Source: a virus. From it: 64,000 bases of DNA. The stretch is taken from positions 29,745 to 93,744 of IMG/VR virus record IMGVR_UViG_3300043436_004480. One strand, written 5' to 3'. Below are positions 5,727 to 43,800 of this stretch, in pieces. A program made the position numbers and the translations under genes. The notes below the pieces were generated by a model. It saw only the letters and a list, made by a program, of their open reading frames with translations. It had not been told where the DNA came from and ran no database searches. How positions within the stretch are numbered: the first letter of the stretch is position 1; each line of letters opens with the position of its first letter.

Positions 5727-6002
5727 CGTTTATTAAGGAAGGATGTGTTTCTGCACAATACACATCAAATTGTTGTGAAATAAGAACTTTTTAAAATACT
5801 TAAAGTCTCTCCGCAATTTTCTATTAATAAGGACTTCTGCAACGACTTCGCAGCATTTGGAATCTTATGAAAATAGAAATAATTAACTAAGGAAGTTAAT
5901 ACATGATTTTTACTTCTGCACGATACCTCTTACGTTATGAACTAGTCATCGACTTGAGTTACGCCCCACATGTTTGTCATTTCTGAAGAATTTCTGTAAA
6001 AT

Positions 6003-6030
6003 AAAAAACTCTCTGATTTCTCAGAGAGTT
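6003..6030 (-). terminator. intrinsic terminator ending the tmRNA coding piece
   Basis: AACTCTCTGA-GAAA-TCAGAGAGTT followed by TTTT. Confidence 0.85.
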
Positions 6031-6300
6031 TATTCACCGTTTTAGTAGGTTTCACTCGTTTAGCTTATGCTGCAACTGCAACACGAGAAAACATAGGTAC
6101 TGATTTGCCGTTTATGGCTTTGCTTTCCTTTCTCAGCGATTTTTCATACTGTCAAAACCGGTCTTCCCCAATTTGCAGAAATGCATCTGCACAGTACTAA
6201 AGCGACTGGTTAGCTACAACAAAAGTTGAGTGGAGAAGTAGGGATTCGAACCCTAGTCCAACATGAATTCTACTTCGATACAAGCGGAACGCATCGTAAA
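6007..6300 (-). ncRNA. ssrA: circularly permuted (two-piece) tmRNA
   Basis: Acceptor piece comes first: TTCATGTT-GGAC-TAGGG-TTCGAAT-CCCTA-CTTCTCC-A, ending at 6231. A 61-nt intervening segment follows. The coding piece starts at 6169: GGGGAAG-ACCGGTTTTGAC-AGTATGAA. The 7-bp acceptor stem has G3:U70 and A73. Tag ORF 6109..6065 reads GKSVPMFSRVAVAA*. The 5' boundary is approximate. Confidence 0.92.
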
Positions 6301-6365
6301 AGTATGCAGAGTTATTTAACTATGCAACTTTAAATTTTAAATCTTTTCCCAGAAAAAGAAAAAGA

Positions 6366-6755
6366 TTAGGGCAACTGTTGATTTTCAACATCTGACTCCT
6401 CGAACTTGATTATTATATCAAACTCAATTTGTAGTTCTGCACCAGTTAACATTTGTTCTTCTGGAGTCCAAGATATATACACTTCACTACCTATGAATAT
6501 GTTATTCATAACAAGTTCAGGAATTAATATGTATCTATGTTGCCACTTAACTGTATTTTCATCATAAGTAAAGAAATCTATTTGTAAAGCTTCATTTTTT
6601 GAAGCATTATCTAAGTAATCTTTATCTATGTTGAGAAAACACTTGTTTTGCAATTCTATTCTTAAACTTGGTGCAATTTCTTCAAGTTTTATACCTTTTA
6701 TAAAGCTTGTTTCCTCTGACCAATTTTGTGTTTTGCACTCTCGTGTTATTTTCAT
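6366..6755 (-). CDS. hypothetical protein (129 aa)
   Basis: ORF track. Confidence 0.65.
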   Translation of the reverse strand: MKITRECKTQNWSEETSFIKGIKLEEIAPSLRIELQNKCFLNIDKDYLDNASKNEALQIDFFTYDENTVKWQHRYILIPELVMNNIFIGSEVYISWTPEEQMLTGAELQIEFDIIIKFEESDVENQQLP

Positions 6756-6756
6756 A

Positions 6757-6915
6757 CTAATCTGAATTCATTTTGTACAAACCGGCTATTCCTAGTAAAG
6801 ATATAATTCCAAAAGCATAGCTTTTTCCAAAGTTTGATTCTAAAACACCTTCTATGCAAAGAAATAAATCTATTCCTATTAATACGCACATGATAATACT
6901 TCCTATTTTTTTCAT
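6757..6915 (-). CDS. small 2-TM membrane protein (likely start MKKIGS)
   Basis: Two hydrophobic segments; the upstream part of the track ORF overlaps 6923..7063. Confidence 0.6.
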   Translation of the reverse strand: MKKIGSIIMCVLIGIDLFLCIEGVLESNFGKSYAFGIISLLGIAGLYKMNSD

Positions 6916-6922
6916 AGATGTA

Positions 6923-7063
6923 TTATTTTCTACAACCTGTACCCATAGTACAAGCTGGTCTGTTTCCATACTTTTTATAAGCAGTATGTCGCTTTTGTGC
7001 ATTATTCTGAGTTGCACAACTCGTTATTGCTATTAAAAGCAATAATGCAATTACTGTTTTCAT
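6923..7063 (-). CDS. small lipoprotein (46 aa), not in the ORF track
   Basis: MKTVIALLLLIAITS-CATQ...: signal peptide II with lipobox ITSC. Confidence 0.7.
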   Translation of the reverse strand: MKTVIALLLLIAITSCATQNNAQKRHTAYKKYGNRPACTMGTGCRK

Positions 7064-7111
7064 GCTGTTTCAGTTTTAATTTTAAATGTTGTTGTTTTCT
7101 GTATATCCTGA

Positions 7112-7142
7112 AATAAAATAATCCAGAGCCATAGACTCTGGA
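7112..7142 (-). terminator. terminator-like hairpin
   Basis: TCCAGAGTC-TAT-GGCTCTGGA followed by TTATTTTATTT. Confidence 0.55.
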
Positions 7143-7202
7143 ATATTAACTACATATTATACAAAATTATGAACACATCATTTCGATTACCCGAAATGTA
7201 GT

Positions 7203-7288
7203 TGCTGCGTACACAGGATTCGAACCTGCTTTGTTCAGACAACACGAGTTTCACGTGCGCAAACAAAATCACCATTAGAAATACGCAG
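7203..7288 (-). ncRNA. tRNA-like RNA with an extended, non-canonical anticodon arm
   Basis: Acceptor CTGCGTAT/GTACGCAG; D-loop TAATGGT; T-arm GCAGG-TTCGAAT-CCTGT; long irregular arm (TTTGTTT/GAACAAA, GCACG/CGTGT) in place of the anticodon arm. Confidence 0.75.
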
Positions 7289-7414
7289 TTTAATTTATTA
7301 AACTTTCTTTGCAGTATCTTAGCAACAGAATAATAAATTAGTAAGTTTCTCTGGTTCTTCCCCTTTCTCTTTGAAACTTACAAATGTCTGAGATTGGAGG
7401 TTCTTGGTTTAAAC

Positions 7415-9318: not shown

Positions 9319-9328
9319 AATTTTGAAA

Positions 9329-9350
9329 TGGTTGCCTTTACACCAAAAGG
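9329..9350 (-). promoter_or_regulatory. family-A pseudoknot upstream of AUG (copy 4)
   Basis: CCT-TT-TGGT-GTAA-AGG-CA-ACCA. Confidence 0.68.
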
Positions 9351-9587
9351 TTAATTTTGAATTTTAAATTTGACGGAATGTGCAGTCACGCACTGTGAAT
9401 AAGAACTTGTTCTGTTGATTAGACTACAAACAATTTGTTTCTTACATCTGCACATTCATTTTAACAGAGGCCAAGATATAATATGCAAGTTGACAAAAGT
9501 TAATCAGACTTTTGTCCAATGTTATTCTTTCTGCACTATATCTTATTTATGCTCCACGCATACCTCTGCTAAAACTGTCAAACTTTG

Positions 9588-9696
9588 TCACAATGAGAAG
9601 ATTCGAACTTCTAAAGTTTTTCGGATTAGAATCTTGTCTAATCTTACTAAGGAATCTACCGATTTCCTCAACTATTCCACCGACTGGACATTGCGA
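9588..9696 (-). ncRNA. tRNA-like RNA whose anticodon arm is replaced by a two-hairpin branch
   Basis: Acceptor TCGCAATG/CATTGTGA; D-arm TCCA-GTCGG-TGGA; AGTT/AACT enclosing TGAGGAA/TTCCTTA and GATTAGA/TCTAATC; T-arm AGAAG-TTCGAAT-CTTCT. Confidence 0.75.
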
Positions 9697-9698
9697 AC

Positions 9699-9756
9699 AA
9701 GTAGTTTAAAATTACGACGTATATCAAATTCATTATTTGATATTTACTTAGGTCGT
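9699..9756 (-). ncRNA. family-B H-type pseudoknot with a hairpin inserted in L2
   Basis: ACGAC-CT-AAGTA-[A ATATCAAAT/ATTTGATAT AC]-GTCGT-AATTTTAAAC-TACTT. Confidence 0.68.
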
Positions 9757-9846
9757 GTCTATTTTTCACCCTATAACAACAAAATAGACTAAATTTGTTA
9801 CTGGGATGCTTTCTTACGAAAGTTTTCAGGAAAAGGTACTATCATA

Positions 9847-9905
9847 AACAGTTTAACAACTTGTTGAGGTTCTGAAAAAGCAGTTTTAAAACTTGCTTAG
9901 GTTTT
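9847..9905 (-). repeat. two tandem family-B pseudoknots
   Basis: AAAAC-CT-AAGCA-A-GTTTT-AAAAC-TGCTT and AAC-CTC-AACA-A-GTT-GTTAAAC-TGTT; flanked by the direct repeat GGTACTATYATAAAC (9835-9849, 9915-9929). Confidence 0.65.
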
Positions 9906-9932
9906 GAAATTAACGGTACTATTATAAACGAA

Positions 9933-10496
9933 TTATTTAAATTCGTTTATAAACTCTTGAGAGCAACGGCAAATTTCTAATTCTGTATCATCTCCTCTAT
10001 TTAAATAAAACAGAATGTCAAAATTATCCACTTTGATCACTAATTCATAAGAACCTTGACCAGAAGCAATCATGAAAAATTCAAGATTTCTTTTGTTAAG
10101 TTTGAATTTTTCTATTTCTCTTTTTAAGGTAGAAAATACAAGTTCAGCATCTTCTCTGCTAAGAATCTTTGATTCATTATCACAAAGAAATTGTTCACGT
10201 TCTGCAAGTTCTCGTTCTGTTTTAGAAAACATAGGACGAATTCTTTCGTCTATATATTCTGCATGCTCTTCATCATGTTTATTAGCATAATGAATATAAT
10301 CTGTTGAATTGCTGAATTCATACAGAGGACCATTTTCGTCATTCTTTATGTATAACAAAATGTCGTTACCGTTATCATGAACAAGATATTGTTCATTTAC
10401 TAATTTGAAAGCATATCTAGCTTCTGTGTTAGCAATTATTTCTTCTAAATTAGGAAATAATTTAATTGCAATGTCCTTTGTGATTAACCTAGGCAT
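9933..10496 (-). CDS. hypothetical protein with an apparent internal duplication (187 aa)
   Basis: RLITKDIAIKLFPNL...DILLYI resembles KILSREDAELVFSTL...DILFYL. Confidence 0.7.
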   Translation of the reverse strand: MPRLITKDIAIKLFPNLEEIIANTEARYAFKLVNEQYLVHDNGNDILLYIKNDENGPLYEFSNSTDYIHYANKHDEEHAEYIDERIRPMFSKTERELAEREQFLCDNESKILSREDAELVFSTLKREIEKFKLNKRNLEFFMIASGQGSYELVIKVDNFDILFYLNRGDDTELEICRCSQEFINEFK

Positions 10497-10572
10497 AACT
10501 CTGAATGCAGCTTCTCATCTGAGAATTTCGACTCCTTTAAGTCTTATTATACTGCTACTTTTTACTTTTAGA

Positions 10573-10618
10573 TATTATTGAAAGATTCGAACTTTCTGAT
10601 CCACCGACTGGAATAATA
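10573..10618 (-). ncRNA. 46-nt minimal tRNA-like RNA (acceptor + D-arm + T-arm, no anticodon arm)
   Basis: TATTATT-CCA-GTCGG-TGG-ATCA-GAAAG-TTCGAAT-CTTTC-AATAATA; D-arm 13-mer identical to the 9588-9696 element. Confidence 0.72.
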
Positions 10619-10620
10619 AG

Positions 10621-10647
10621 GAACAGTTTTTAAACTTGTTCAGGTTT
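10621..10647 (-). ncRNA. family-B H-type pseudoknot directly after a stop codon
   Basis: AAAC-CT-GAACA-A-GTTT-AAAAAC-TGTTC. Confidence 0.68.
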
Positions 10648-10976
10648 TAATCTGCTAACCAGTCGTATTCAGATTTATCGAAATAGTCTGGATCACTAAT
10701 ATCTTTGTTATCGAATGCTTCTAGTTCTTCTATGCTTTTTCTTAACGAAGGATGCACTCCAGTATTTTCTTGCCACTCGACTATCTGCTCATCAGTAAGT
10801 TCAACTTCATTTCTAAGTTGTGCAAGAAATTTATTTCTATCGTCGTCTGTAAGGATTTCTCCATACATATTCTCAAAAATTTCGACGTTGTCTTCATGAT
10901 AAAGACGTTCTGCTTCTCTGAAAGGAATTTTTAACTCTAAAGAAGCGTATGCGATTAATTCGTTTTGAAGGTTCAT
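10647..10976 (-). CDS. acidic hypothetical protein (109 aa)
   Basis: Very D/E-rich ORF. Confidence 0.7.
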   Translation of the reverse strand: MNLQNELIAYASLELKIPFREAERLYHEDNVEIFENMYGEILTDDDRNKFLAQLRNEVELTDEQIVEWQENTGVHPSLRKSIEELEAFDNKDISDPDYFDKSEYDWLAD

Positions 10977-11343: not shown

Positions 11344-11379
11344 AATTTGCATCTGCACGTTAGTGTGTACAGCCAACTT

Positions 11380-14532: not shown

Positions 14533-15076
14533 TTTTAAAAGTTCAGAATCAAATTTCTGGGAGTTTAATCCTAGTTTTTCTTATGTTCCTGAGTTTTCAG
14601 CAATAAGAAAACAAGATCTTTCTACTTTGAAGAAAGATTCATCTTATTATATGTGGTTTGCTTGGTTTATGTTTGATCCAGAAAGTCCATATCACTATTT
14701 CCCAGAAAAAGAAAGAATGCAGAGGATTGCTGAATGTGATTTCTTCCGCAAATTTAGATCTGGAGAAGATGATATTATATCAAAAGATGATAAAGATTGG
14801 ATTCCTAGAATATTAGTTGAATATCAGAAGGTAACAATGACTTCTGCACAGCGTTCTTTGTATATGTTTGATGAGCATATAAAAGAACGTGAAGAATACA
14901 TGAGAAGTTTAACTTACTCAGATCCTAATAATGCAAAAGTAAAAGATGATCTTCTTATAAACACAAAGAAAGTTTTAGATTCAAGAAAAGAAATCGAAAA
15001 ACTAGCTTTGTCAGAAATGTCTTCGGTTGAAATAAATAATTCAGAAGCTTCTTTAAGCGATAAAAATGTTATATAA
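14519..15076 (+). CDS. protein upstream of TerL (possible terminase small subunit)
   Basis: Overlaps the TerL start; assignment by synteny only. Confidence 0.55.
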   Translation: MKVNSFKSSESNFWEFNPSFSYVPEFSAIRKQDLSTLKKDSSYYMWFAWFMFDPESPYHYFPEKERMQRIAECDFFRKFRSGEDDIISKDDKDWIPRILVEYQKVTMTSAQRSLYMFDEHIKEREEYMRSLTYSDPNNAKVKDDLLINTKKVLDSRKEIEKLALSEMSSVEINNSEASLSDKNVI

Positions 15077-17225
15077 CCGTTCTAACTTTATTCTTCCTGA
15101 AATACCTTTAATAGATCCGAGAAGTCCAGAATATACAGACTTCTGGAGAGGAGAAAAAAGAAAAGCTATTGAAGGAGTTTGGGCAGGAGGATTTTGGTGT
15201 CCTCCTACTGTATATCATTATGCAAACTTTAGTAATATAGATATTACTCAAGGAAAGATAAGGGTGCAGAAGAGAGCTGAACTCAGAGATTTAGAATGGG
15301 AAAAGGGGAAAGTTCATGCAGTAATGAGAGGATTTTCAGGATTTGAAAACGATCCTGAATTTACTTGTGATATAACTGCAAAAGAATTTGGAGTAGATGC
15401 AAAAGGAAGAAAGTATTTAGAACCTATGGACTATTTAAACCGTTGGTTTAAAACAGACTTAGGAAAAGCTAGATATAATAATCCGAACTTAAATCTTTTA
15501 GATATGGAAGCACGTGGAACAGGAAAATCTTTCTGGGCTGCGAATTTAATATCTCATTACTTTTTGTATGATGGTGCAACAGACTATGATGTGTATTCAC
15601 ATCAAAGAAATATAGGTGAGCAGATGAACTGCGAAATTATAGTTGCTTCTGTTCAAGACACTTTCATTGATGCTTTGCTTTCAAAAGTAGATAAACACTT
15701 AAGTAATTTACCCGGAGGACAAAGTATAAATGGAAGATACCATCCATCACCTTTATCAGTTACATACGCTGGACAATTAGATAGCAAAAATAAATCTGGA
15801 ATTGTAAAAGGAAGAAATGTAAAGAAAGGTGGAGTTTGGGTATTCGAAGGTTCGCAGACTCAAATATTAGTAAGAAACGTAGGTACTAAAAAAGCAGCTT
15901 CTTCTGGTAGTCGTGCAATGTATGTTGCAATTGAAGAGTGCGGACTTGATCCAAGATTAGATGATGTATTTGCAAACTTAAAAGACGTAATTAAAACAGA
16001 TACTGGAAACTTTGGTTCTATACATATGTTTGGAACTGGAGGAGAAGTTGCAGCAGGAAAAAGTCAAGCTGCAAAAAAGATGTTTTCTAAGCCTAGAACG
16101 TATGATTGTTTGTTTTTTACAGACAAGAAAGGAACAGAAATAGGATATACAGTTCCTGCATATAAAAAGTATAATGAATTCAGAGATGATAATGGTATTC
16201 TAGATGAAGCAAAAGCATTAGCTTTCTATAATAAAGAAAGAGAACGAGAAAAAGGAGATACAAAATTATATTATGATTTTATTCAAAACAATCCGTTAGA
16301 ATGGGAAGAGATGTTTCTAATTCCGGGAGGAAATAGATTTCCTACTCAGTTATTAGAACAACAAAGAAGTTATTTAATGACTGCTGCACATCCTAGAGAA
16401 CTAGGAATTTGCGGAGAATTAAGTTCAATTGGTGCAGATGGAAAAGTTACATTTACTCCAGATTTAGAAAACAAACTAAAACCCGCATCTTATCCAGTAG
16501 AAGATAAGAATAATAAAGATGAAGGTTGTGTAGTTATATTTGAATTTCCAGATGAAGATTTAGTTCAGCACGATGGAGTATATATTGCAGGACTAGATCC
16601 ATATGATCACGATGATGCAAGTTCAAGTTCTTCATTAGGTTCTATAATAATATTCAAAAGTTGCAGAGCAAACAAATATAAGAAAGATGCAACATCAGAA
16701 ATCATAGTTGCAGAATATACTGGAAGACCTAAGTCAGCAAATGACTTCTATGAAATTTCGTTAAGACTTTTATGTTTTTATAACGGAAAAGTTCTTTATG
16801 AAAATGAAAAGATAATGGTGAAAGCTTATTATCAGAGAAAAGGTTTTGCACATAGACTTGCAGGAACTCCAAATATATTGAGATCGTCAGTTGATGCTTC
16901 AATAAAAAATAGAAATGGTGTTGGAATCAACATGACTCTCGACATAAAGAAAGAAGCAGAGGAAATGTTAAAAGATTATTTTACAGAATCTGTAATTATG
17001 CAAATTAAGTCCATTCCTATTCTGTCAGAAGCAATAGATTTCAATCTTTCTGGCAACTTTGATAGAATGATTGCTCTAATGTTAGCTATTATTTATAACT
17101 TGCAAATAAAGACTGACGATGGTGATGAAACTCAGGCAGTTAATAATGACTTAATGGATTATCTTAGAAAAAAGACAGAGCATATGCGAACAAGACCGAA
17201 TCTAAGAAATCTAATCCAGAGATAA
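15066..17225 (+). CDS. terL: terminase large subunit
   Basis: Walker A ARGTGKS, Walker B VAIEECG, FGTGG coupling motif, nuclease GLDPY and NFDRMIALMLA. Confidence 0.93.
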   Translation: MLYNRSNFILPEIPLIDPRSPEYTDFWRGEKRKAIEGVWAGGFWCPPTVYHYANFSNIDITQGKIRVQKRAELRDLEWEKGKVHAVMRGFSGFENDPEFTCDITAKEFGVDAKGRKYLEPMDYLNRWFKTDLGKARYNNPNLNLLDMEARGTGKSFWAANLISHYFLYDGATDYDVYSHQRNIGEQMNCEIIVASVQDTFIDALLSKVDKHLSNLPGGQSINGRYHPSPLSVTYAGQLDSKNKSGIVKGRNVKKGGVWVFEGSQTQILVRNVGTKKAASSGSRAMYVAIEECGLDPRLDDVFANLKDVIKTDTGNFGSIHMFGTGGEVAAGKSQAAKKMFSKPRTYDCLFFTDKKGTEIGYTVPAYKKYNEFRDDNGILDEAKALAFYNKEREREKGDTKLYYDFIQNNPLEWEEMFLIPGGNRFPTQLLEQQRSYLMTAAHPRELGICGELSSIGADGKVTFTPDLENKLKPASYPVEDKNNKDEGCVVIFEFPDEDLVQHDGVYIAGLDPYDHDDASSSSSLGSIIIFKSCRANKYKKDATSEIIVAEYTGRPKSANDFYEISLRLLCFYNGKVLYENEKIMVKAYYQRKGFAHRLAGTPNILRSSVDASIKNRNGVGINMTLDIKKEAEEMLKDYFTESVIMQIKSIPILSEAIDFNLSGNFDRMIALMLAIIYNLQIKTDDGDETQAVNNDLMDYLRKKTEHMRTRPNLRNLIQR

Positions 17226-17231
17226 CGAACA

Positions 17232-19628
17232 ATGAATACTAACAAGATACTTTTCCAGACTGCTGCCGTAGGATTTCCTCCGCAGAAAATTGCCAGTTCC
17301 AAAAAAGGAAAAGAGTGGCAAAGACAATGTATGGATGCCATAATTGGAAAAGCTGCATTGTTAAACCAACAAGGAGGAAGAAGAACAGATAGAAACTCAA
17401 AGATTAGAAATTATAATCTTTTGAATTCAATCTTAGATCCAAATGATTTTCAGTCAGTAGTTAGTTCATTAGGTTATACAGAAGATACACTTGCAAACGA
17501 TCCCGCAAAACTGAGACCGTTTAATATGTTTTATCCAATACATCAACAGTTAATAGGAGAAGATTTAAAAAGACCTTTTCCTTTTACTGTATATGCTAGT
17601 GGTGGATCTATTGTGGAAGAAAAAGACAGAATGAAAAAAGAAGCAGTAGTTACTGAACTTCTAAAAGGATTCCGTCAAAAAGTAAAAAGAACTGCAAATC
17701 CAGATGTTGAAGAAGAAGAAGTTAATCTTGATCAAGTTGTAAAAGATTACGGAAGTTCTTATTATCACAAGAAAGAAGTATTAGCAAATAAGTATTTGAA
17801 AAGTCTGTACAAGACTTGTGAATTAGATATAACTTTTAGAGATGGTTTAAGTCACGCAATTATAGTTGCAGAAGAACTTTACAAAGTTACAAAAGTAAAC
17901 GGACAACCATCAGTAAGAGTAGTTGATCCTTTGCAGATCGAATTTGACTTACCTACTGGATCTTCAAAACTTGAGGATGCATATTGGGTAAGAGAAGAAA
18001 GACAGATGACTCTTGCAGAAGTAATTGATGAATTTGCAGAAGACTTAACAGATGAGCAGATTTCCGAATTAGAAGAGTTAGGCGGAAACCACATGCAAGG
18101 TTATTCACCAACTACTGATTTTCCGGGAGTAATATCGAATGATATAGATATACGTAATACAGAAAGGTATGGTTCTGCACAAGGAAGAAGTGTAGGAACC
18201 ATAACAACTTTTGATGTGCATAATGTATGTTGGAAATCATTCAAGAAAACTCCTTATTTAGAAGGAATAGATGATTCAGGAATTCCATTTAAAGTTCTTG
18301 TAGAAGAAAACAGAAAACTTACTTCTGAAGAAAAGAAAAAAGGTTACAAGATAAATGTACTTTGGATAACTGAAGTTTGGGAAGGTGTAAAGATTGGCTA
18401 CTTGCATTTGAAAGCAAATCCAACAGAAGTTAGATATGCTTCAATGAGCAATCCGAAAGCTGCAAAACTTCCTTACGTTGGTACAGTATATAATGCACTC
18501 AATTCTCTAGCAACTTCTATTATAGATTTAATAAGACCTTTAAATTATTTGAAGATCATTATTATTTATAGATTAGAAAGAGAACTAGCAAAAGCAAAAG
18601 GTAAAAAGATAGTAATAGATAAAGCAAAAATTCCGGGAGATATGTCTTGGGATGAATGGTTCTATTACTTAAATGAACAAGATGTAGAAATCATAGATAC
18701 ATCGAAGATTGGTTCTGGCTCTCCTAATCTTGCATACAATACTTATAAAGATCACGATTTGACTATTTCGTCAAACGCAACTCAATACTTAGGTATTATA
18801 CAATATATAGATAACGAAATTTTCAGAATTACTGGGATGAGTAGTGCTAGAATGGGAACTCCAACACAAGATGGACTTGGAGTAAACCAAATGGCAATGA
18901 CTCAATCTTATGCAATTACCGAAAATCTTTTTTATCAGCATAATGATGTAAAGAAAAGAGTTCTTTCACATTTATTGCTTTTGGCGAAATACTGTTATGC
19001 AGATACAGAAAATGTAAAGTATCAGCAAATGAATGGCGACCTTCTGACGGAAATTATAGAAATGGATGGTGGAATATTTGCTGATTCTGATTTCGATATA
19101 TTTGTTATGAATAGTATCAAAGAAAATAAGATCTTTGCAACTATTGAAGCACTTGCTACTACTGCAATGCAGCAACAAAGTATAACTATGACAGAATTTG
19201 TCAAAGCATTAAAATCTGAATCATCTGCCGAAATGGAAGCTGTATTAGGAAAAGCAGAAGAAAGAAAACAACAACAACAAGAGGCATTCCAACAACAAAG
19301 TCTGCAAGTTCAACAAGAGAAAAACGAAATTGAAAAACAGAGAATGGAAATCGAACGTCAAGAAAAACAACTTGACAGAGAAAACCAAGTTCTAATTGCA
19401 GAAATAAAATCAGGTAGCGACATACAAAGAACTATGTTAGGCCTAAATGATAATGCAGAAAATCAAGCAAACAGAACATTTGCATTAGATGCTGCAAAAA
19501 GTCAAACAGAAAATCGTAAAGTAGATGTCGAAGCTGCATTGAAGATTGCAGAACTGAAAACTAAAGTTTACGATGCAGATACCAAACTCAAAATAGCAAA
19601 AGAAAATAAACTACCCGGAGAAAAATAA
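17232..19628 (+). CDS. portal protein (crAss-like)
   Basis: 798 aa directly after TerL; FPPQK N-terminus, WITEVWEGVKIG, LPYVG, C-terminal Q-rich coiled coil. Confidence 0.88.
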   Translation: MNTNKILFQTAAVGFPPQKIASSKKGKEWQRQCMDAIIGKAALLNQQGGRRTDRNSKIRNYNLLNSILDPNDFQSVVSSLGYTEDTLANDPAKLRPFNMFYPIHQQLIGEDLKRPFPFTVYASGGSIVEEKDRMKKEAVVTELLKGFRQKVKRTANPDVEEEEVNLDQVVKDYGSSYYHKKEVLANKYLKSLYKTCELDITFRDGLSHAIIVAEELYKVTKVNGQPSVRVVDPLQIEFDLPTGSSKLEDAYWVREERQMTLAEVIDEFAEDLTDEQISELEELGGNHMQGYSPTTDFPGVISNDIDIRNTERYGSAQGRSVGTITTFDVHNVCWKSFKKTPYLEGIDDSGIPFKVLVEENRKLTSEEKKKGYKINVLWITEVWEGVKIGYLHLKANPTEVRYASMSNPKAAKLPYVGTVYNALNSLATSIIDLIRPLNYLKIIIIYRLERELAKAKGKKIVIDKAKIPGDMSWDEWFYYLNEQDVEIIDTSKIGSGSPNLAYNTYKDHDLTISSNATQYLGIIQYIDNEIFRITGMSSARMGTPTQDGLGVNQMAMTQSYAITENLFYQHNDVKKRVLSHLLLLAKYCYADTENVKYQQMNGDLLTEIIEMDGGIFADSDFDIFVMNSIKENKIFATIEALATTAMQQQSITMTEFVKALKSESSAEMEAVLGKAEERKQQQQEAFQQQSLQVQQEKNEIEKQRMEIERQEKQLDRENQVLIAEIKSGSDIQRTMLGLNDNAENQANRTFALDAAKSQTENRKVDVEAALKIAELKTKVYDADTKLKIAKENKLPGEK

Positions 19629-20500
19629 TGAGAACAAGATCAAAAATTAATTCTGACGGTTCAGTTACAGAACGTAGCAATCTGTCAGATCTTAATAAAT
19701 ACCCAGACGGTACTAAAAAGGTAAAAGCACCTAGTACAGAAACGAGAGGTGATAAGACTGCAACGGCAATGCCTGCAAAGAGAAAGGCAATGACTAATGA
19801 AGAAGAAATAAGAAGCACAAGAGGTACACAAATGGAGCGTGGTTCTTATTATGATAATAAGGATAAAAATCAGTTTGAAGGAGATGTTTATCAAGCACAA
19901 GACAAAGCAAGGGATATAAAAAAGGCACAACAAAACCAAAGGGATAAAGCCCTTGAAAGAGCAGTATCTGGCAAATTTGAAAAAGGTACTTCTGGTGTTT
20001 CTAATTCCAAAAAATCTCTTGCAGAAAGATATGCAGAAAACAAAGGCGGATATGCAAGAGCATTACAATCTGGAAAAGTTGTAGAGAAAAACGGAAAGAA
20101 AGTTGTAACAGATCCAGATACAGGTCTGGAATATGAATACAAAGGGAATCCGGAAAAAACTTCTGAATCTACAAAACAAGGATTGTCTAAAATAAACAAT
20201 CAGATTGATGGAGATAATTCTGCAAAGAGAAGAATGCCAAAAGCAATGAATTTAATGCCACAATCTGACAAAGTTAATATTCCTATGTCAAATCCTAAAT
20301 CAGGAAATTTAGGAACTCCAAAGACTTCTTCTATGTACGATAACGAAGCTGTCAGAAAGGCAACCGGCAGAACAGGTCAAATAAGTAACCGAGACAGAAT
20401 AAACGCAGCTAAAGGTAATAATACTTCTAGCACATCTACACCGGTGACTGCTTTTTCAAAAAGGGAAGAAGAATTCCAGAGAAAATTAAGAAATAAATAA
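19628..20500 (+). CDS. basic low-complexity protein with cargo-type [YF]xxG[GT] motifs
   Basis: KYPDGTKKVK and KFEKGTSGVS are shared with, or closely match, 32302..36039. Confidence 0.7.
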   Translation: MRTRSKINSDGSVTERSNLSDLNKYPDGTKKVKAPSTETRGDKTATAMPAKRKAMTNEEEIRSTRGTQMERGSYYDNKDKNQFEGDVYQAQDKARDIKKAQQNQRDKALERAVSGKFEKGTSGVSNSKKSLAERYAENKGGYARALQSGKVVEKNGKKVVTDPDTGLEYEYKGNPEKTSESTKQGLSKINNQIDGDNSAKRRMPKAMNLMPQSDKVNIPMSNPKSGNLGTPKTSSMYDNEAVRKATGRTGQISNRDRINAAKGNNTSSTSTPVTAFSKREEEFQRKLRNK

Positions 20501-20525
20501 TTTCGTAACCAATCTTTAAATTAAT

Positions 20526-21572
20526 ATGTCAACAAAAGCAAGTGAAATCGAAGAAACCTTTGAAGATACAAATGACTTCATTGGAAATTTAGTATCGCAA
20601 GATACTTCTGCCCAGACAGATTTGAATTCAGGAGATAATGATCCTGATGAAGATGATGATGATGCAGATGATGATTCTGGAACTCAGATTGCAGATGATT
20701 CTGCAACTAGTCAATCATCTCAGCAAACCGCACCTGCAAATAAATCAGTAGAAGAAATTCTAGATGTATTTACAGAACATCTATTTATTCCAGCAGAAGG
20801 AGTAGATGTAACAAACAAAGAAGAAGTTTCAAAACTATTAGATTATCATAACACTACTGTTATTGATACTTTTATAGATCAGACAAAAGAAAATCTATCT
20901 GAAAAAGAAGTTATGCTTTTAGAAGCACTTACTTCTGGAATTCCTTTGTCAGAAATTGATTTTGATTTTCAGGCTGTTGATTATTCACAAGTGGATGAAA
21001 CAGACGAAGAAAATCAAAGAAACTTGTTATTTGATTACTATGTTAATGTTAATAATATGGACGAAGAAGATGTAGAAATTTTAATTTCTTCTCTTAATCC
21101 TGAAACATTAGCTAGCAGAGCAAGAGTAGCAAAGGAAAAACTTTCCGATTTTCAACTTTTGGAAATTCAGAATGCAAAGGAACTGCACGAAAGGAGACTC
21201 GAAGAACAAGAAATTATCGAGAGACAACAACTTGCAGATTTTAAGAGTAAAATTTTGAGTATAGACTCAGTAGCAGGAATGAATTTATCAAACGAAGATA
21301 AACTTGCTATATATGATTACTATACTTTGCCAGTAAAAAATGGAAAAACTCAAAATGAGTTAGACCAGACAAGTATTGATAATGTTGCTTTGCGAGCAAT
21401 AATGAACATAAAGAATATTTCTTTAGATAAATTGAGCAGACAGGCAGAAACAAAAGTTGTAAATAGACTTTTAAGAGTTGGTTCATCAGAACAAAATACA
21501 GGTGGCAGAACTGTTCAGGGAAAATCTGGAATTGCTACTACGCAAAATACTACCTTTGCTTATGACCTATAA
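20526..21572 (+). CDS. acidic putative scaffolding protein
   Basis: Very D/E-rich; directly upstream of the major capsid gene as in crAss-like phages. Confidence 0.7.
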   Translation: MSTKASEIEETFEDTNDFIGNLVSQDTSAQTDLNSGDNDPDEDDDDADDDSGTQIADDSATSQSSQQTAPANKSVEEILDVFTEHLFIPAEGVDVTNKEEVSKLLDYHNTTVIDTFIDQTKENLSEKEVMLLEALTSGIPLSEIDFDFQAVDYSQVDETDEENQRNLLFDYYVNVNNMDEEDVEILISSLNPETLASRARVAKEKLSDFQLLEIQNAKELHERRLEEQEIIERQQLADFKSKILSIDSVAGMNLSNEDKLAIYDYYTLPVKNGKTQNELDQTSIDNVALRAIMNIKNISLDKLSRQAETKVVNRLLRVGSSEQNTGGRTVQGKSGIATTQNTTFAYDL

Positions 21573-21594
21573 TAATAACAATAATATATAAACC

Positions 21595-23115
21595 ATGCCA
21601 GCAGAAGCACAATTTAATGCAGGAAGGTTATCTAACTTACAGGTAACCACTCAAGAAGCACTTGTAGGAAATCTTTCTACAAGCGATCACTTAGAACGAA
21701 TGTTCGCAACAGAACGCCATAAACTAGGAAGATTTTTATCTTACGAACTTGGTGGTAGGAATGTAAAAAATGGAAAATTCTTAATGCAGTTCTTGACTGG
21801 CGGTTTAGGAAATGAAATTTTTACAGAAAGCGAAGAATTCAGTTGGGATTTAATTCTCCCTCAGATTTATTACGGTGAAGTAATAAAAGATGCAACAGAA
21901 GTTGAACCGAACAACGAATTCGTTGGTAGGTATCATACTGTATTTAGGGTTGTAATGAAAGATAAAGTCTTTAACCAAAGAGATATTATCTATTCAGATA
22001 AAAACATTGACATCACCTGTCAAGTTTGTGCAGAACCAGTTCCGTATTCAGCAGGTGGTTGGATGTATTCATTGGTAATTTCAAATGCAGACAAAGATTT
22101 GTATTTGACCAAAGATGCAATTAGTACTGGTGCTAAATGGAGCAGAGACTTTACAGCAGTTGAAGAACTGTCAACTAAAGTTGAAAGTGGTAGAGCGCAT
22201 ACATCAGCAATGTTTGTAAACAATCTTACCACAATCAGAACAGGTTATTCAGTTTCTGCAAAGTTAGCAATGCAGAAGATGATAATTGAAATTCCAGATT
22301 CAGAAGGTAAGTTCCACAAAAAATGGATCAACTATGCTGACTGGCAGAACATGATTGATTTCCAAAATGATTTTGAAAATCTATTGTTCTACGGAAATCC
22401 ATCATTTGACCAAAATGGTTTGAGCCACTTAAAAGGTAAAAACGGAAAAGTAATTAAAATTGGTGCTGGGGTTCGTTCTCAGATTTCCGATTCAATGAAG
22501 CATTTCTACAAAGGTTCATTTACTTATGATTTCTGGGATGAAATCCTATTGGATATGTCATACCAAGTACAAAGAAATGGTGGAAATCATAACTTTGTTG
22601 CATTCACAGGTAAAATGGGTATGCGTAAGATTACCGAAATGGTAAATAAGAAATGGAAAGGAATGGTTACTCCGAATTTCATTAGTAATGATGCACGTTT
22701 CTTGGATGGAAAAGGTCAAGAAATGCAATTCTTAGGAATGGAATTCCAAACAATTCATTTCCCGAACGGAATTAAGTTAACCGTAAAAGAACTTCCTGCA
22801 TACGATGAAATGTCAGGTCGTGGTTTAACAAGAGATCCGTTAACAAACAAACCAATTGAATCTTCAAGATTTACATTGATGAATTTTGGTACAGCAGATT
22901 CAAGTGGTACTAAGAATATCAGAAAAGTCACCAGAAAAAGTTCAGAAAGAATGTGGTACACAGGTGGTTCAATTGATCCAATGGGTATTGTTTCAAATTC
23001 TAAATCGAAAATGGGAAGTACTGATATTGATGGTTACGAATTGCACAGGATTACAGAAGGCGGTGTAATTATTACCGATCCTACTCAATGTTGTGAAATT
23101 ATCATGAAAGCATAA
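21595..23115 (+). CDS. major capsid protein (crAss-like)
   Basis: 506 aa; NNLTTIR, KIGAGVRSQI, FTGKMGM, TDIDGYELH...GVIITDPT; synteny; strong terminator downstream. Confidence 0.9.
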   Translation: MPAEAQFNAGRLSNLQVTTQEALVGNLSTSDHLERMFATERHKLGRFLSYELGGRNVKNGKFLMQFLTGGLGNEIFTESEEFSWDLILPQIYYGEVIKDATEVEPNNEFVGRYHTVFRVVMKDKVFNQRDIIYSDKNIDITCQVCAEPVPYSAGGWMYSLVISNADKDLYLTKDAISTGAKWSRDFTAVEELSTKVESGRAHTSAMFVNNLTTIRTGYSVSAKLAMQKMIIEIPDSEGKFHKKWINYADWQNMIDFQNDFENLLFYGNPSFDQNGLSHLKGKNGKVIKIGAGVRSQISDSMKHFYKGSFTYDFWDEILLDMSYQVQRNGGNHNFVAFTGKMGMRKITEMVNKKWKGMVTPNFISNDARFLDGKGQEMQFLGMEFQTIHFPNGIKLTVKELPAYDEMSGRGLTRDPLTNKPIESSRFTLMNFGTADSSGTKNIRKVTRKSSERMWYTGGSIDPMGIVSNSKSKMGSTDIDGYELHRITEGGVIITDPTQCCEIIMKA

Positions 23116-37773: not shown

Positions 37774-37798
37774 AGTCCGCCAAGTGCGGACTTTTTTT
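37774..37798 (+). terminator. intrinsic terminator
   Basis: AGTCCGC-CAAGT-GCGGACT followed by a T-run. Confidence 0.8.
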
Positions 37799-37811
37799 GT
37801 ACCTTGGCTTT

Positions 37812-40800
37812 ATGGCAAAGCAACAAAAACCTACTGTACCAGTTGTAAATCGTAGTACACAAGAAATTGATCAAATATCTAAGATGTTTGATAATGTAAA
37901 AGGTGGACTAGATAGTTATGGAAATACTGCAAGAACAAGTTTTATAGGAAAAGACGATTATACTACCAGTCAATATGATACTGAAAGAACTCAGTTCGAT
38001 GATATGGAAGCAGTATATAATGCAAGAAATGCAAATCAAAGTTACTTTGATATTGCAGGAAATATGCTGGGAAAAGTTGGAGTTCGTGCTTTGTCTGCAA
38101 CTATTGATTTAGGAGCAATGATTTCTGGTTCAGGAGTAAGCGGAGTTCCTTTATACTTATTTGATAAATACGTAAGAGATAAACATCAAAATGTAAATAG
38201 TTTTTGGGATGGTTACAAAGAATCCGTATTTGATAACTCAATAACAGATCTTGCAGATTTAGTTCAAGAATTTGGAGATGATAATTTTCAACAACAATAT
38301 AGTGCAGATCAAAGAAAATCAGATGGAGTTTCATTAAAAAGAATTGTTACAGAGGGAGTACCAGATGCAGCAGGATTTATTTTATCTGCATGGTTAACTG
38401 GAGGAACGTCTGGCGCAACAAGTTTAGTAGGAGGAGCAGCAAAAGCTGCAACTGGTATAGGATTAGCAGGAAAAGGATTAAATGCATTAAAAGCTTCTAA
38501 AAGTTTTGGAAAAATGATGACTGTTTTTCCACAAGAAACCAAAGCTATACTTTCTGCTGCTTCTAAAGGTGCAGATGTTACAGAAGATATAATTAAATTA
38601 AGTAATGCAGCTAGAAATGCAACACGTTGGAATTTAGCAAAGTCTGCATTTACAGGTTCTCTAGGAGAAGCTTCACAAGAAGGCAGAGCAACAAGAAAAG
38701 AAGTAGAAAAAGAACTTGTTGAAAATTACATGCGTGAAAATGGAATTGCAAACGAAGAAGATATAGATGTGTTTACAAGAGCGAGTCTGAGAAGTGCTGC
38801 AACAGATGCAGGTGTTGTAAATTTTGCTATAAATAGTGCAATCCTTACAGGTTCAAACTTATTATCTTTTCCTACTTATTTTAAAAGATTTCAACATGGA
38901 AAAAGAGAACTAGGAAAATTTGTAAATAAAGGAATAAACCCGGATGATGCATATGATTTAGTTAAAAAAACAACAAAACAAAGAGTAGGCGATGCAGCAA
39001 AAAGATACGGAGAAACTTTTATAAAACAAGGCACACCAGAATCCGTACAGGAACTTCTGCAGACAATGTCTTCTTCCGGAGTAACAAATTATTATTCTAA
39101 CAAATTTTCAGAAAAAGAAGCAGAAGAAGCTACAAGTGCAATTGGTGGATTTTTATCTTTGTTTGCAGATACAATCTCAAGTACAGAAGGACTTGAAGGA
39201 ATGATTGTTGGTGGTCTTATTGGAGGCGCACCGGCAATAGTTGCAAATGAAAAAGAAAGAGGTGCAAAAAGAAAAGAAGCAGCCGAATTAGTAACTGCGT
39301 TAAATAATAGCCAAGCAAAATCACAATATCCAAAGTTATTCAAAGGTATTGTAGATAATCTTAATTCTCAAAAAAAGAAAGATACTGCCCTTGTAGCAGA
39401 TGACATCTTTACTTTTAAGAATGAAGATCATAAGCAGATATTTGACTATATGAACTTGCGACTTGATCTAGATCGTGAGGAAGATATAAAAGCAGATATT
39501 GAAAATCTAAAAGTTGCAGATCCAGATATATTAGATGAATTATTTGGTGCAAAAAATAGTGAAGTAGAAGGTTTTTCTTATGCAGATTTAGCTACAAAAC
39601 TAGAAGAAAAGTTAGAGGCAGTAAAGAAAACTCGTGACAAAATAAATCTTAATTATACAACTCTTGATCAAGAAACAAAAAATCAGCTGATGTATTTTGC
39701 ATCAGCAGTTGACAACTTTGACAAGAGAGAAAACCAGATTGTTGAAGAATTGGCTGCACAAACTGGAGTAAGCGTAGATACTATTAGAGAAACTTATAAA
39801 AGTTACAAAGATACAGATGCAGTAGATTACAAAGATGTAATTCTTAGAGAATCTAAAAAGAAGTTCAATGTTAATCCTATATTAGATAGTTTAGATACAC
39901 TTGCAGATTCACTAGGATTGTCAAGTGCAACTAAGAAATCATTTTTAGATTTTGAAACTGAGAAAAAGAAAACGGAGCCTGATTTTAAAACAGATTTGGA
40001 TTCTCTGTTTAAGATTATTACAGGAGAAGCCGGTACAACATCTTCTTTGTTTTCTGGGGATAATACTAAACCTGCAAACTCTGAACTTTCATCAGTAATA
40101 GATGAAAATGCATTTTCAGATGAGTATAAATCACTAATAAGTTCTGCAAAAACAGATTATGCAGCTAAAAAACTTAAAGGCAACCAAACAAGAAACGAAA
40201 AAGGACAATTTGGAGAGAACGAAGATTTTTCTCCTCAGTCTGAACAAATAAACAAAACTTTTTCTGACTTAAAAAAAGTTGCAGACACAAGAGAAACTTA
40301 CTACAAGTATTATACTGAACTTAGCAGAAATCCATTTGCACAAGCAAGATTCAGAAACGAAGTTGAGCAAGACAAGAAGAGATATGCAGAATACATATCT
40401 AAAATATTAGCACAGCCTGTAACTACTCCTGCGGAATTAGCATCAGCAGAAACTAATACTTCTGCTTCTAATTCTATTGCAGAAGCAGGTAAAAAAGCTA
40501 CTCCTACTTCTGGTTCAATTCCATTTTCAGAAATGCCAAGTGGTTATGAAACAGGTACCGGAGATAACTCAGGTTTGCCAACTCCATCTGGAAATCAGAT
40601 TATTCAACAACCTCCTGCAAAACCAACAGAAGAAAAAAAACCGAACCAGAAAAAAGAAGAACCTTCTAAAGGAACTGGTACAAACACAAGTACACAAACC
40701 TTAAAAGAAGCACTTGCAAAGGTAGTTCAAAAAAGTAATACAATTTCTCTTAATGAAAAAGGAGATGGATATGTAGTAAAAGGTTTAGGAAAATTTTTCA

Positions 40801-43800
40801 GAAGAGCAACGTCTGTTGTAGGAAGAGAATTTACTGGCGGGAAGTCAAAGCAGACAAATCAGATTGCATTAGGTAATGCATTCGATGTATTAGGAAAATT
40901 GACTTTTGGAAAAGAAGGTGCAGAAGCTAGTGAAGAAGATAAAGCAAAATTGTTACCTATTTTTCCTTCGATTTCTCAAGAACTTGCTGATATAACTGAT
41001 GGTCTTGCAGGAATAAGAAAATCTTTAGAAACGGGATCAAAAACAAGACCAAAAGCAATAAATTTTTATACAGGTTTAAAACTTGCAAATACAACAGGAT
41101 TAAACATAGCAGGCGAAATAGATTTGCTTGTTGAGTACGAAGACGGAAGTTTACAAATTGTTGATTTTAAGTCGACTTCTTCAACTGACTATATATTAGA
41201 CAATTATCTTCCTCAACTTTCTTTATATCAGTCTTTATTACAAAGAGAACTCAATTTACCAGATGTAAATTTTAGAGAACCTGCAATAATAAATATTGCT
41301 ACTAAAGTAGATCCTAATAATTCAACATTAAGAATATTTGACGAAAAGTCTGTAAAAGCAATATCTCTTACAGATACAGAAGATAAAAAGAATCTTGGAA
41401 TAAAAACAAGAAGTTTCTTATCAATGTTATTAGAGTATGAAGGATTTACAGATGAGTACTTCTCTTTACCAGAAAACAGAAATGATTTAGAAGCTGTTGC
41501 AAGATACAATCAGGAATTATTAAGAAATCCGAATATAAATCACGAAGTAGAACTTCTTGATAATGGATTAACGGCAATATATGCAGAATTATCAGATGGT
41601 TCAGGAGCAAAAGAAAGCAAACATGTTTCTTATATTCATACTGATTCAACTCTAAAAGCATACAACATAGAAAATGCAAAGATGCTTCTTTCTGAAATAG
41701 AAAAAGACACTTGGGCAAAAGACAATCTTCTGAAACCTGATATAAAAAGAGAAATACGTTCGACTTTCGATAAATTGAATAGAGTAAGAAACGTAAGAAA
41801 CTCTTTAACAAAAGGAAAAAGAAATAAACTTTCTGTAAAAATTTCATATTCTCCTGATTTTTTTGTTAGTGAAAAAGATTGGAAGCAACAGAGAACTTTG
41901 GCAGATATGATTGCAGCAGGAGATATTCCTATTGGATCTTATGTATATGAATCATTAAGAAAAAAAGACAATAATTCTTACTCGGTAAAACCACTAAAAG
42001 AAACAGGAACTCCAGCAGACCTGACTGCTACTGCTCAAGGACTAAATGCAAAATTTCCTACTGACAAATGGATTTTAGTATTACCAAAAGCAGATTCTAC
42101 TGTTGCTCCAAAAAGAGTAACGCTAAGACCATTGCCTATATTCAAAGAAGATGGAACTTCATTGACTAAAAGTTCAAGAGAAAAGTTAGACAGTCTTAGA
42201 AAGTTAGCAACTTCAAACTTCGAAGCTTCTAAGGCTACTGATATTCTGAACTCTCTAGTTTTTATTCCTACTCAAAAACAATATGAAGTAGAAATAGAAG
42301 GAGCAGATGGAAAAATCAAAAAAGAAAATACAAATTATGACTTTAGAGTTTCAGTAGCTGGAAAACTATCAGATACTGAACTTGCAGTTACTTATCAAGT
42401 AACAAGTTATAAATATGAGAATGATACATATACACCAGTAGATTTTACTTTTACTGGAAGTATGGAATTACTTTCTGAAGATGAATTTGAATTTCTTTTG
42501 GATATGCCTACTACCGTAAACAAAGGAAAAATGTTTGAAGGTAGTGAGTTTTTAGGAAAAACAAATAAGCAGATATTTAATGAACTTCTTGGAAAAGATG
42601 GAAAACCGGGAGTAACTGAAGCGAAAGGTAAGTTTGCAATTGACAAATCTTCTTTCTTGTTAGGAAGTCCTACATCTGCATCGGAATTAGTTCCTTTATT
42701 AAATCAAGATGTGCCTATAAAAGTTGTAAAAGAGTTTGCAGAACAGGCAGTAGGCGAGGAAGTACAAGATTTGAAGAAATCGGAAACAGTTGCTAATAAA
42801 GTAGTTGATAATCTAGTTACTCCAGTAACAATAAAACAAGAGGATGAAGATACTGGATATTCTTTGTTTTCTGGGAATAATTTAGTTTCTGCTGATTTAC
42901 AGGATATAAAAAATAGACTTTCTAAAATACTTCCTTCTTCTGTTGAAGTTAGTAGTATTATGTCTATGGTTCAAAAATTAAATCTTACTGGTGCAGAACT
43001 AGGAATGGTTTATAAAAACGCAATTTATCTTGCTAATAAAATTGAAAAAGGTACAGAGTATCACGAAGCATTTCACATTGTTTTTAGGTCGATTCTTTCC
43101 GAAAAACAAAGAGCAGAACTTCTCGAAGAAGAACTTAGAAATAATCCAGTATCGCAGGAAGAAGTTGATTCTTTCAAAAATCTTCACCCATCGTATAAAT
43201 TTTTAACAAATGAAGAAGCATTAGAAAAACTTCTTGAAGAAAGATTAGCAGATAGATTTCAGACTTATCAAGTTAAAAAAGATTCTACTTCCTTGGTAGG
43301 AAAATTCTTTAACTATCTAAAAGATCTAGTTTCTTCTCTTTTTAAAAACAGAAGCAAGATAGATTCAATCTTTGCAGAAATAAGTGCTGGAAAATTTAGA
43401 AATTCTGCATTGTCTTATAATGGAAAAGCTGTATTATTCAAAGCTTTGCCAGCAATGATGGTGAGTGAATCAGACTATTTAGTAAGATGGATTTCTTCCG
43501 AAATAGCTGCTGATTTTACTAACAGAGAACAAGGTGATAATTTAGAAGAAGCGAAAGAAAATGCTTATGAAGGTTTAACTGATTCATATCTTGATAATCT
43601 TACAGAAAGATATTATGCAGAATCAGGAATGCAGATGAGCAAGGAAGAGTATGATAATTTAGATATTGCTAGTAAACAATATTATGTTGCTACGAAATCT
43701 GGCGAATATTTACCTAAATCTGGATTTCTAGATCTTTCTGCAAGACCTGCATTTTTAGCAGAATTAAGAAATGAAATTCTTAATAAGTTTAATAATTATG

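Follow-up and report, generated by a model that had tools for sequence, protein, structure and literature searches.

Pseudoknots joined to anticodon-less tRNA mimics in a divergent crAss-like phage: a candidate RNA-processing cassette in two forms

What might a pseudoknot do when it stands two nucleotides in front of a tRNA-shaped RNA without an anticodon, between two genes of a bacterial virus? The question is raised by two cassettes lying in gaps that phage annotation currently leaves empty. They belong to a window of 64,000 nucleotides, the whole stretch of DNA that was analysed here, which comprises bases 29745-93744 of a 93.7-kb IMG/VR virus record with a G+C content of 32%; all coordinates below are those of the window unless a contig or locus is named. 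The region 15066-23115 contains, in succession, the genes for terminase, portal, and major head protein, and because the portal protein is at most 30% identical to those of crAss-like phages of Bacteroides, Flavobacterium, Cellulophaga, and Azobacteroides, we assign the phage to the Crassvirales as a divergent member. The sequencing runs containing this DNA are lake and freshwater metagenomes, and none is listed as RNA. Judged by its genes and by these runs, the source is an uncultured, divergent crAss-like phage of freshwater. The only close relative seen was a 90-kb contig with a terminase 77% identical; the major head protein and a 187-aa ORF neighboring the cassettes had no relatives in IMG/VR, blastn against GenBank phages gave no match, and a weakly informative terminase pattern scan of genome and metagenome contigs yielded no relative among the 600 matches listed. 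A single ORF of 4602 aa (37797-51605, plus strand) is situated in the structural block; it may encode the virion RNA polymerase that crAss-like phages typically have.

Both cassettes are on the minus strand amid a row of small ORFs without family matches, and this same-strand arrangement suggests one long transcript. In a simple scan, promoter-like sites were not in excess in the cassette region, and terminator-like sites were detected, but none at the cassettes. ARAGORN called no intact tRNA gene in the phage. The heptamer GTGCAGA occurs on the minus strand at 11358, 9536, 9453, 6192, 5756, and 4930, at non-coding sites of the early region that follow A/T-rich runs; the phage may use it to mark promoters or processing sites.

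Two cassettes of a pseudoknot and a tRNA mimic

The large cassette (9756-9588, minus strand) lies between a stop codon at 9933 and a start codon at 9318, all on the minus strand. The preliminary description had seen in it a large pseudoknot, a 2-nt linker, and a tRNA-shaped RNA with two hairpins, and this architecture was confirmed with the minus-strand sequence and RNAfold. The H-type pseudoknot (9699-9756, minus) is built of a stem S1 of 5 Watson-Crick pairs (ACGAC 9756-9752 with GTCGT 9718-9714), a loop L1 of CT (9751-9750), a stem S2 of 5 Watson-Crick pairs (AAGTA 9749-9745 with TACTT 9703-9699), a 26-nt hairpin as L2 (9744-9719), and a 10-nt L3 with AAAC at its end (9713-9704); S1 and the L2 hairpin are also paired by RNAfold. 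A GT linker (9697-9698, minus) leads to the tRNA mimic (9588-9696, minus; RNAfold and descriptor scan), the acceptor of which is formed by 9696-9689 and 9595-9588 with 8 bp, the third being G.U. The D-arm (9688-9676) is followed by hairpin 1 (9671-9647; 10 bp, one bulge, and a GGUA loop), hairpin 2 (9643-9624; 7 bp and a 6-nt loop), 11 nt of single strand, and a T-arm with a 5-bp stem and the loop TTCGAAT (9612-9596). RNAfold returned the cloverleaf-like fold together with S1 at -42.7 kcal/mol (z = -2.96), and none of 200 shuffled sequences folded as well. Hairpin 1 closes with a 4-nt loop, so the large mimic has no anticodon loop, and an identity as tRNA-Sec or allo-tRNA was rejected for this reason. 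ARAGORN called no tRNA in the large mimic, and Rfam returned no tRNA match at E ≤ 10. An identity as a GOLLD, ROOL, or Y-RNA-like RNA was rejected because there was no Rfam match, and a plus-strand protein encoded by ORF 9415-9792 or ORF 9512-9709 was rejected because nothing supports these frames and they overlap the RNA folds.

Directly behind the large mimic, a non-coding stretch of about 270 nt (9319-9587, minus) reaches to the next start codon. It is strongly structured (RNAfold, -72.8 kcal/mol; z = -4.07), contains no minus-strand ORF of 35 aa or more, and had no match in Rfam; possibly it is an RNA with a 5' end that a cut behind the mimic creates. A second, different small pseudoknot-like motif is found about 10-35 nt 5' of the start codons at 9318, 8515, and 8009 (minus), where it precedes the ...AAAATT-ATG of consecutive genes; before 9318, it pairs CCTTT with AAAGG and TGGT with ACCA. 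On the other side of the cassette, the stop codon of ORF 9933-10496 lies within a perfect A/T-rich hairpin of 13 bp (9920-9950, minus).

The small cassette is located between a stop codon at 10647 and a start codon at 10496, also on the minus strand. Its compact pseudoknot (10621-10647, minus) scored 44 bits with a covariance model, R1, of which it is a training member, and its first base is also the final base of the stop codon (10649-10647) that ends ORF 10647-10976. It is followed, again after 2 nt, by a 46-nt mini-tRNA without an anticodon (10573-10618, minus; sequence and descriptor scan) that consists of a 7-bp acceptor, a D hairpin, a 4-nt linker, and a 5-bp T-stem with a TTCGAAT loop, the 4 nt being all that stands in place of the anticodon and variable arms. 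Its acceptor is made up entirely of A-T pairs, and the fold energy of the small form is unexceptional (z = -0.34). Read-through of the 109-aa ORF was considered and rejected, as only 22 codons would be gained and the spacing is wrong. Downstream, a 64-nt leader (10494-10557, minus) contains TATAAT, AAGGAG, and a 10-codon upstream ORF that overlaps the main start codon.

Comparison of the two mimics indicates what has been preserved. Almost all positions of the acceptor and two pairs of the T-stem are altered without loss of pairing, while the D-arm and the T-loop are identical to the letter; the 11-nt core of each occurs exactly twice in the 93.7-kb genome, once in either cassette. Loops that stay frozen while stems drift with compensation point to selection on the fold and not to decay, which upholds the earlier claim of a conserved fold with variable but paired stems and invariant loops. 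The same claim for the pseudoknot, that S1 and S2 differ in letters and nevertheless pair, was also borne out: both stems of the large form, known from a single sequence, are fully Watson-Crick, and the compact family covaries (see below). Hallmarks of tRNA are present in both mimics, namely, a TTCGAAT T-loop, GTCGG in the D-loop, and an acceptor/T stack of 7/5 bp in the small form and 8/5 bp in the large form. The anticodon arm with a 7-nt loop that characterizes canonical tRNA (RF00005) is present in neither, and neither was called as a tRNA by ARAGORN or matched to one by Rfam at E ≤ 10. Their trailers are C-AAA and T-CTA rather than RCCA, with different discriminators (C and T). As regards the features of tmRNA (G3:U70, A73, and a tag frame), the large mimic has a G.U at pair 3 but a C as discriminator, the small mimic has neither a G.U nor an alanine identity set, and no tag frame is found in either. 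The tentative idea of an interchangeable payload in the anticodon position draws on two forms, one empty and one with two hairpins, and on a single strain contig.

A third tRNA mimic (7205-7288, minus) was detected by the descriptor scan and by a weak tRNA-Sec match (21.8 bits, below threshold). It has an 8/5 acceptor-T stack, a minimal D region of its own, and one long central helix, and there is no pseudoknot on its 5' side. A permuted two-piece tmRNA is encoded at 6277-6065 (minus; Rfam, 59 bits; ARAGORN tag GKSVPMFSRVAVAA), directly followed by a Hatchet ribozyme (5990-5901, minus; 61 bits). Hatchet cleaves at its own 5' end, so that the tmRNA coding piece may have its 3' end trimmed in this way. 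The tmRNA, the Hatchet ribozyme, and all three mimics are contained within approximately 5 kb.

The compact pseudoknot family

Two further compact pseudoknots stand free in the gap that holds the large cassette. Copy A (9878-9904, minus; 47 bits with R1) and copy B (9846-9872, minus; 28 bits with R1, one C.U mismatch in S2), both training members of the model, follow the stop codon at 9933 at distances of 27 and about 60 nt. The compact pseudoknot is 27 nt long and follows the plan N-AAC-CU-(5 nt)-A-GUU-N'-NNAAAC-(5 nt). IMG/VR was scanned with a pattern in which the shared letters alone were fixed and the S2 positions left free; the motif was located at 117 loci or more, and S2, at those free positions, was perfectly paired in 115 of the 123 IMG/VR matches listed. 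Among 95 distinct sequences, the outer pair of S1 was CG in 34, AU in 32, UA in 11, UG in 4, GC in 3, GU in 1, and unpaired in 10; S2 was 97% paired with alternation of GC, AU, and GU; and 93% of the cells were paired overall, compared with 28-41% when the 3' partner was slid. A fifth S1 pair was rejected, since it is unpaired in 41 of the 95 sequences. The compact copies could alternatively form a plain hairpin in which GUU pairs with the AAC at the end of L3, but the covarying S1 pair in the 95 sequences favors the pseudoknot, and the frequent U.G pairs in S2 fix its strand. On this covariation, which backs both stems, the compact pseudoknot is a real, strand-specific RNA family.

The large-form pseudoknot (9756-9699) gave no match to R1 at E ≤ 10 with filters off. 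It has in common with the compact family an L1 of CU, a 5-bp S2, and an L3 ending in AAAC; it differs in having another S1 of 5 bp, a 26-nt hairpin in place of the single-A L2, and an L3 of 10 nt. We provisionally class it, from one sequence with perfect stems of its own and the same 2-nt placement, as a structural variant. A loose pseudoknot descriptor found 10 sites compared with 5.5 expected from shuffled sequences, a difference that is not significant.

The family has a characteristic position. An ORF ends within 80 nt upstream in 90 of 108 distinct loci, most often at a distance of 5-9 nt, a peak that may be inflated because these loci are not phylogenetically independent. A start codon is often found 19-42 nt behind the pseudoknot, and U/C-rich bases follow it (108 loci). 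Nine loci of one phage group (L236, L241, L252, L259, L270, L284, L288, L289, and L328) have a post-stop compact pseudoknot and, behind it, a T-run plus DnaA-box-like TGTGGATAA repeats. No Rfam family corresponds to the compact pseudoknot (no match at E ≤ 10 in the window or at E ≤ 1 in five other loci); for preQ1-I and other small pseudoknot riboswitches there was likewise no Rfam match, and the flanking genes vary while the position is usually post-stop. A literature search by its sequence found no paper. The motif went undetected in the 401 Bacteroidota genomes searched and in 0.94 Mb around the terminase genes of 80 distant crAss-like relatives. By this distribution, the compact pseudoknot is not a trait of this clade but a module shared across phage lineages.

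How closely is the pseudoknot tied to tRNA-shaped RNAs? In this phage, two of the four pseudoknots abut a mimic, each time with the same 2-nt linker. Elsewhere in the family, a real tRNA begins 3-8 nt behind the compact pseudoknot at 3 of the 108 loci (Asp, Asp, and Trp), no locus has a mini-tRNA there, and the remaining 105 have no tRNA behind them, which implies that the pseudoknot has a role of its own. The third mimic lacks a pseudoknot and copies A and B stand alone, so the linkage is not obligatory. What survives of the claimed linkage between pseudoknot and mimic is the 2-nt linker of both cassettes, against which half of the pseudoknots and one of the three mimics stand alone. As far as these loci go, pseudoknot and tRNA-shaped RNA are joined repeatedly, but in a minority of cases. 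The 0.94 Mb around the terminase genes of the 80 distant relatives contained no pseudoknot-mimic cassette; a strict mini-tRNA descriptor returned nothing new in 2.9 Mb of other loci and two matches in a reversed control; and patterns linking the D-arm to the T-loop matched only ordinary tRNAs or chance sequences in IMG/VR. Odd tRNA-shaped RNAs were seen near the terminase of distant crAss-like relatives at L068 5966-6066 (minus), L082 3337-3483 (plus), and L083 3517-3665 (plus); they include a 99-nt form with an inner T-loop-like hairpin and a 145-nt tRNA-Asp-like form with a variable region of 75 nt.

Mini-tRNAs in bacteria and signs of exchange among related strains

Saprospiraceae belong to the Bacteroidota, the phylum infected by crAss-like phages, and a metagenome-assembled genome of this family encodes an anticodon-less mini-tRNA in its 16S-23S spacer (contig CBDCAB010000005.1, 7451-7502; locus L204). 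The spacer is 385 nt long (16S at 5772-7297, 23S from 7683) and has no spacer tRNA. The mini-tRNA has the D-arm core CCAGTCGGTGG and the T-loop of the phage mimics, with no pseudoknot on its 5' side; as it was found by a pattern that required the D-arm core and the T-loop, their identity was imposed by the search and does not independently argue for common descent. Precursor rRNAs are classically processed at spacer tRNAs, and by analogy the simplest reading of this mini-tRNA is that of a processing signal. In a second genome from the same order (L349), spacer tRNAs are accompanied by a weaker D/T remnant, and a pattern search of 121 genomes of the order of genome G001 gave weak or partial look-alikes only.

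Pattern searches of metagenomes and GTDB genomes returned mostly chance matches and a few real mini-tRNA-like elements. Those from metagenomes (L094 7603-7659, L097 7443-7503, L098 26-118, L170 106-166, and L106 2449-2502) form another small family with the same core and share a 5-bp D hairpin, a GAGG/CCUC T-stem, and GCTTTG as 3' strand. Their linkers are short, apart from one of 46 nt in L098. The L097 element adjoins SusC/SusD genes, and two of the metagenome elements are followed by terminator-like hairpins.

Contigs of related strains, which come from other studies, differ at the cassettes. Homology with related-strain contigs stops exactly at 10573, which is the last base of the mini-tRNA. 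Copy A is kept as a 34-nt island (9879-9912) amid unlike sequence in contigs of two runs, and the 64-nt leader (10494-10557) is kept between unlike flanks, in the manner of a mobile regulatory cassette. In one strain contig, 9555-9611 and 9808-9859 are kept and 163 unlike letters take the place of the 196 bases between them (9612-9807); 9395-9545 is identical in a contig of one related strain. Position 9866 reads T (plus strand) in three runs, by which the mismatched S2 pair of copy B is restored. The breakpoints and islands argue that the modules are separate exchangeable units with edges matching the structural edges.

A proposed processing site with a capped 3' end, and rival readings

In tRNAs, the acceptor/T stack is measured by RNase P, RNase Z, and the CCA-adding enzyme, which also contact the D/T elbow; the small mimic presents the canonical 7+5 bp and the large mimic 8+5 bp. 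We tentatively favor, at a little under an even chance, a reading of the cassette as a processing site for RNase P and RNase Z that leaves a capped 3' end on the upstream RNA. The first module would be a variant of the compact H-type pseudoknot that is set a few bases behind stop codons, and the second a non-decoding mimic of the top half of tRNA, that is, of the acceptor/T stack and the D/T elbow. Host RNase P would recognize the elbow and the 12/13-bp stack and cut at the 5' end of the acceptor; in the large form, the predicted cut falls behind the GT linker or, if 12 bp are measured, one base further in. The upstream RNA would then end as a pseudoknot plus 2-3 bases, a tail presumably too short for 3'-5' exonucleases to grip, and RNase Z or another nuclease would free the 3' side of the mimic along with the following RNA's 5' end.

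An RNase P-based module for 3'-end processing had already been proposed in the preliminary description, and the proposal holds in part. In its favor are the 12/13-bp acceptor-T stack with an intact D/T elbow, the position at gene boundaries within a same-strand gene row, the real tRNAs 3-8 nt behind the compact pseudoknot in three other phages, and the Saprospiraceae spacer mini-tRNA with its matching D-arm and T-loop, to which the break of strain homology at the 3' end of the phage mini-tRNA can be added; against it, the modules also occur apart (two pseudoknots of the four stand free, as does one mimic of the three), and the trailers are not RCCA. The unexceptional fold energy and all-A-T acceptor of the small form, the 105 family loci with no tRNA behind the pseudoknot, the negative search of the 80 distant relatives, and the position of the large-form pseudoknot outside model R1 count on the same side. 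The protein subunit of bacterial RNase P binds the single-stranded leader, and a folded pseudoknot 2 nt from the cut site may hinder the enzyme. A more ambitious version seems possible but doubtful: phages would possess a kit of RNA modules that punctuate their long messages (stop-proximal cap, mimics, and leaders), of which cap and mimic would in the present phage be fused as a counterpart of MALAT1/mascRNA, so that RNase P would yield a capped 3' end and the excised tRNA body would be a stable small RNA serving as scaffold for an exchangeable hairpin payload.

It is unlikely, in our estimate, that the mimics instead act in trans, as stable non-decoding look-alikes that divert a host factor reading the elbow or acceptor, with the pseudoknot as an unrelated neighbor. 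Candidate targets would be a defence nuclease directed at tRNAs, the CCA-adding enzyme, a modification enzyme, EF-Tu, or SmpB, and the tRNA body of the large form would be a scaffold for its two hairpins. The invariance of the elbow nucleotides while the stems drift fits such a role, as do three different mimics and a phage tmRNA within 5 kb and the G.U at the third acceptor pair of the large form. The simple scan, however, gave the mimics neither a promoter nor a terminator of their own, the small one begins 2 nt after a stop-proximal pseudoknot inside a gene row, and the acceptors share no identity set and differ in their discriminators (C and T). Release of such an RNA would, moreover, still require the cuts of the processing reading, so that the two are not exclusive, and a decoy or scaffold acting in trans is compatible with the same cuts as punctuation. 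Alternatively, the pseudoknot might act on translation or transcription at the gene end, by timing termination or ribosome release, by blocking re-initiation or scanning, or by stopping or pausing the polymerase, and its adjacency to a mimic would be incidental packing. At 5-9 nt, a structure meets the leading edge of a terminating ribosome, which is where the narrow stop spacing at the 108 loci mostly places the pseudoknot, and the next start codon (often 19-42 nt behind) and the U/C-rich bases after it agree with an action of this kind. Pseudoknots of similar size can stall ribosomes and exonucleases (PMC10321173). We nevertheless judge this distinctly unlikely as an account of the cassettes: the pseudoknot of the small one overlaps the stop codon and would have to be melted by the ribosome, the distance from the stop codon is 27 nt for copy A and about 60 nt for copy B, the non-independence of the loci may have inflated the spacing peak, and the 2-nt linker to the acceptor in both cassettes is left unexplained.

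The strain comparison raises the possibility, very unlikely in our view, that the cassettes are mainly junction modules of a mosaic genome, either crossover points or mobile units in the shuffling of accessory genes, with any RNA function secondary. The end of homology exactly at 10573 suits this idea, as do the short islands that alone are shared (34 nt at 9879-9912 and 64 nt at 10494-10557) and the swap of 9612-9807 for 163 letters. Crossover points, however, require identity and not compensatory stem changes; the G.U pairs and the covariation in both pseudoknot stems indicate selection on an RNA of one strand; and an identical core of 11-13 nt is short for homologous recombination. That the mimics are decaying tRNA genes and the pseudoknot pairings due to chance is highly improbable and disfavored, notwithstanding that the phage has no intact tRNA gene and that the loose pseudoknot descriptor found 10 sites where 5.5 were expected, because the stems remain fully paired despite their near-complete change, the loops are identical, the anticodon arm is cleanly absent or swapped for closed hairpins, and the compact pseudoknot family extends over more than 100 loci with covariation.

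The processing reading can be set beside several known systems. In plant mitochondria, the tRNA-like ends of t-elements coincide with mapped mRNA ends, and RNase P and RNase Z are named as the responsible enzymes (Forner et al. 2007, PMC1920247). The phage mimics resemble t-elements as non-decoding, tRNA-like folds with a conserved T-arm, found at mRNA boundaries on the transcribed strand; they differ in belonging to a bacterial virus, in having no anticodon arm or two hairpins instead, in the dedicated pseudoknot on the 5' side, and in that their ends are predicted. At the 3' ends of MALAT1 and MEN-beta, a triple helix precedes mascRNA, and the 5' cut by RNase P makes a capped 3' end and releases the small RNA. 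The phage arrangement is alike in that a structure of protective type stands directly 5' of a tRNA-like RNA, with a 2-nt linker in both cassettes, whereas the putative cap is an H-type pseudoknot of 27 to 58 nt without an ENE-like U-rich internal loop, the cleavage is predicted, and the system would be bacterial. Spacer tRNAs provide a third parallel through the Saprospiraceae mini-tRNA, which combines the anticodon-less plan, the D-arm core, and the T-loop of the phage mimics at a processing-type site, but with no pseudoknot in front. Resistance to exonucleases or stalling of ribosomes is brought about by coremin-type Xrn1-resistant RNAs and luteoviral H-type pseudoknots (PMC10321173), which share with the phage pseudoknots a very small size and an A-rich third loop. 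The likeness drawn is one of structure; they are found in eukaryotic RNA viruses, block a 5'-3' enzyme, and need a second hairpin, whereas protection in the phage is proposed against 3'-5' enzymes. The tRNA-like domain of tmRNA also combines an acceptor and a T-arm with a reduced D region and no anticodon. The engineered tRNA scaffold, in which foreign RNA in the anticodon position is trimmed out by tRNA enzymes, recalls the large form, with the difference that it is a laboratory design and no natural family.

The guidance of message punctuation by tRNAs is known from mitochondria, haloarchaea, and a few nuclear RNAs. If the cuts occur, it would extend to DNA phages, and a very widespread tiny phage pseudoknot absent from Rfam would acquire a first testable role; the 27-nt pseudoknot and the 46-nt mimic would then be compact parts for controlling RNA ends in bacteria, and the Saprospiraceae rRNA-spacer mini-tRNA hints that hosts use the same device. 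A literature search on anticodon-less tRNA mimics or the compact pseudoknot in phages found no paper. The kind of device to which the cassette would belong is known from organelles and nuclei; the phage setting, the putative pseudoknot cap, and the hairpin-bearing scaffold are new.
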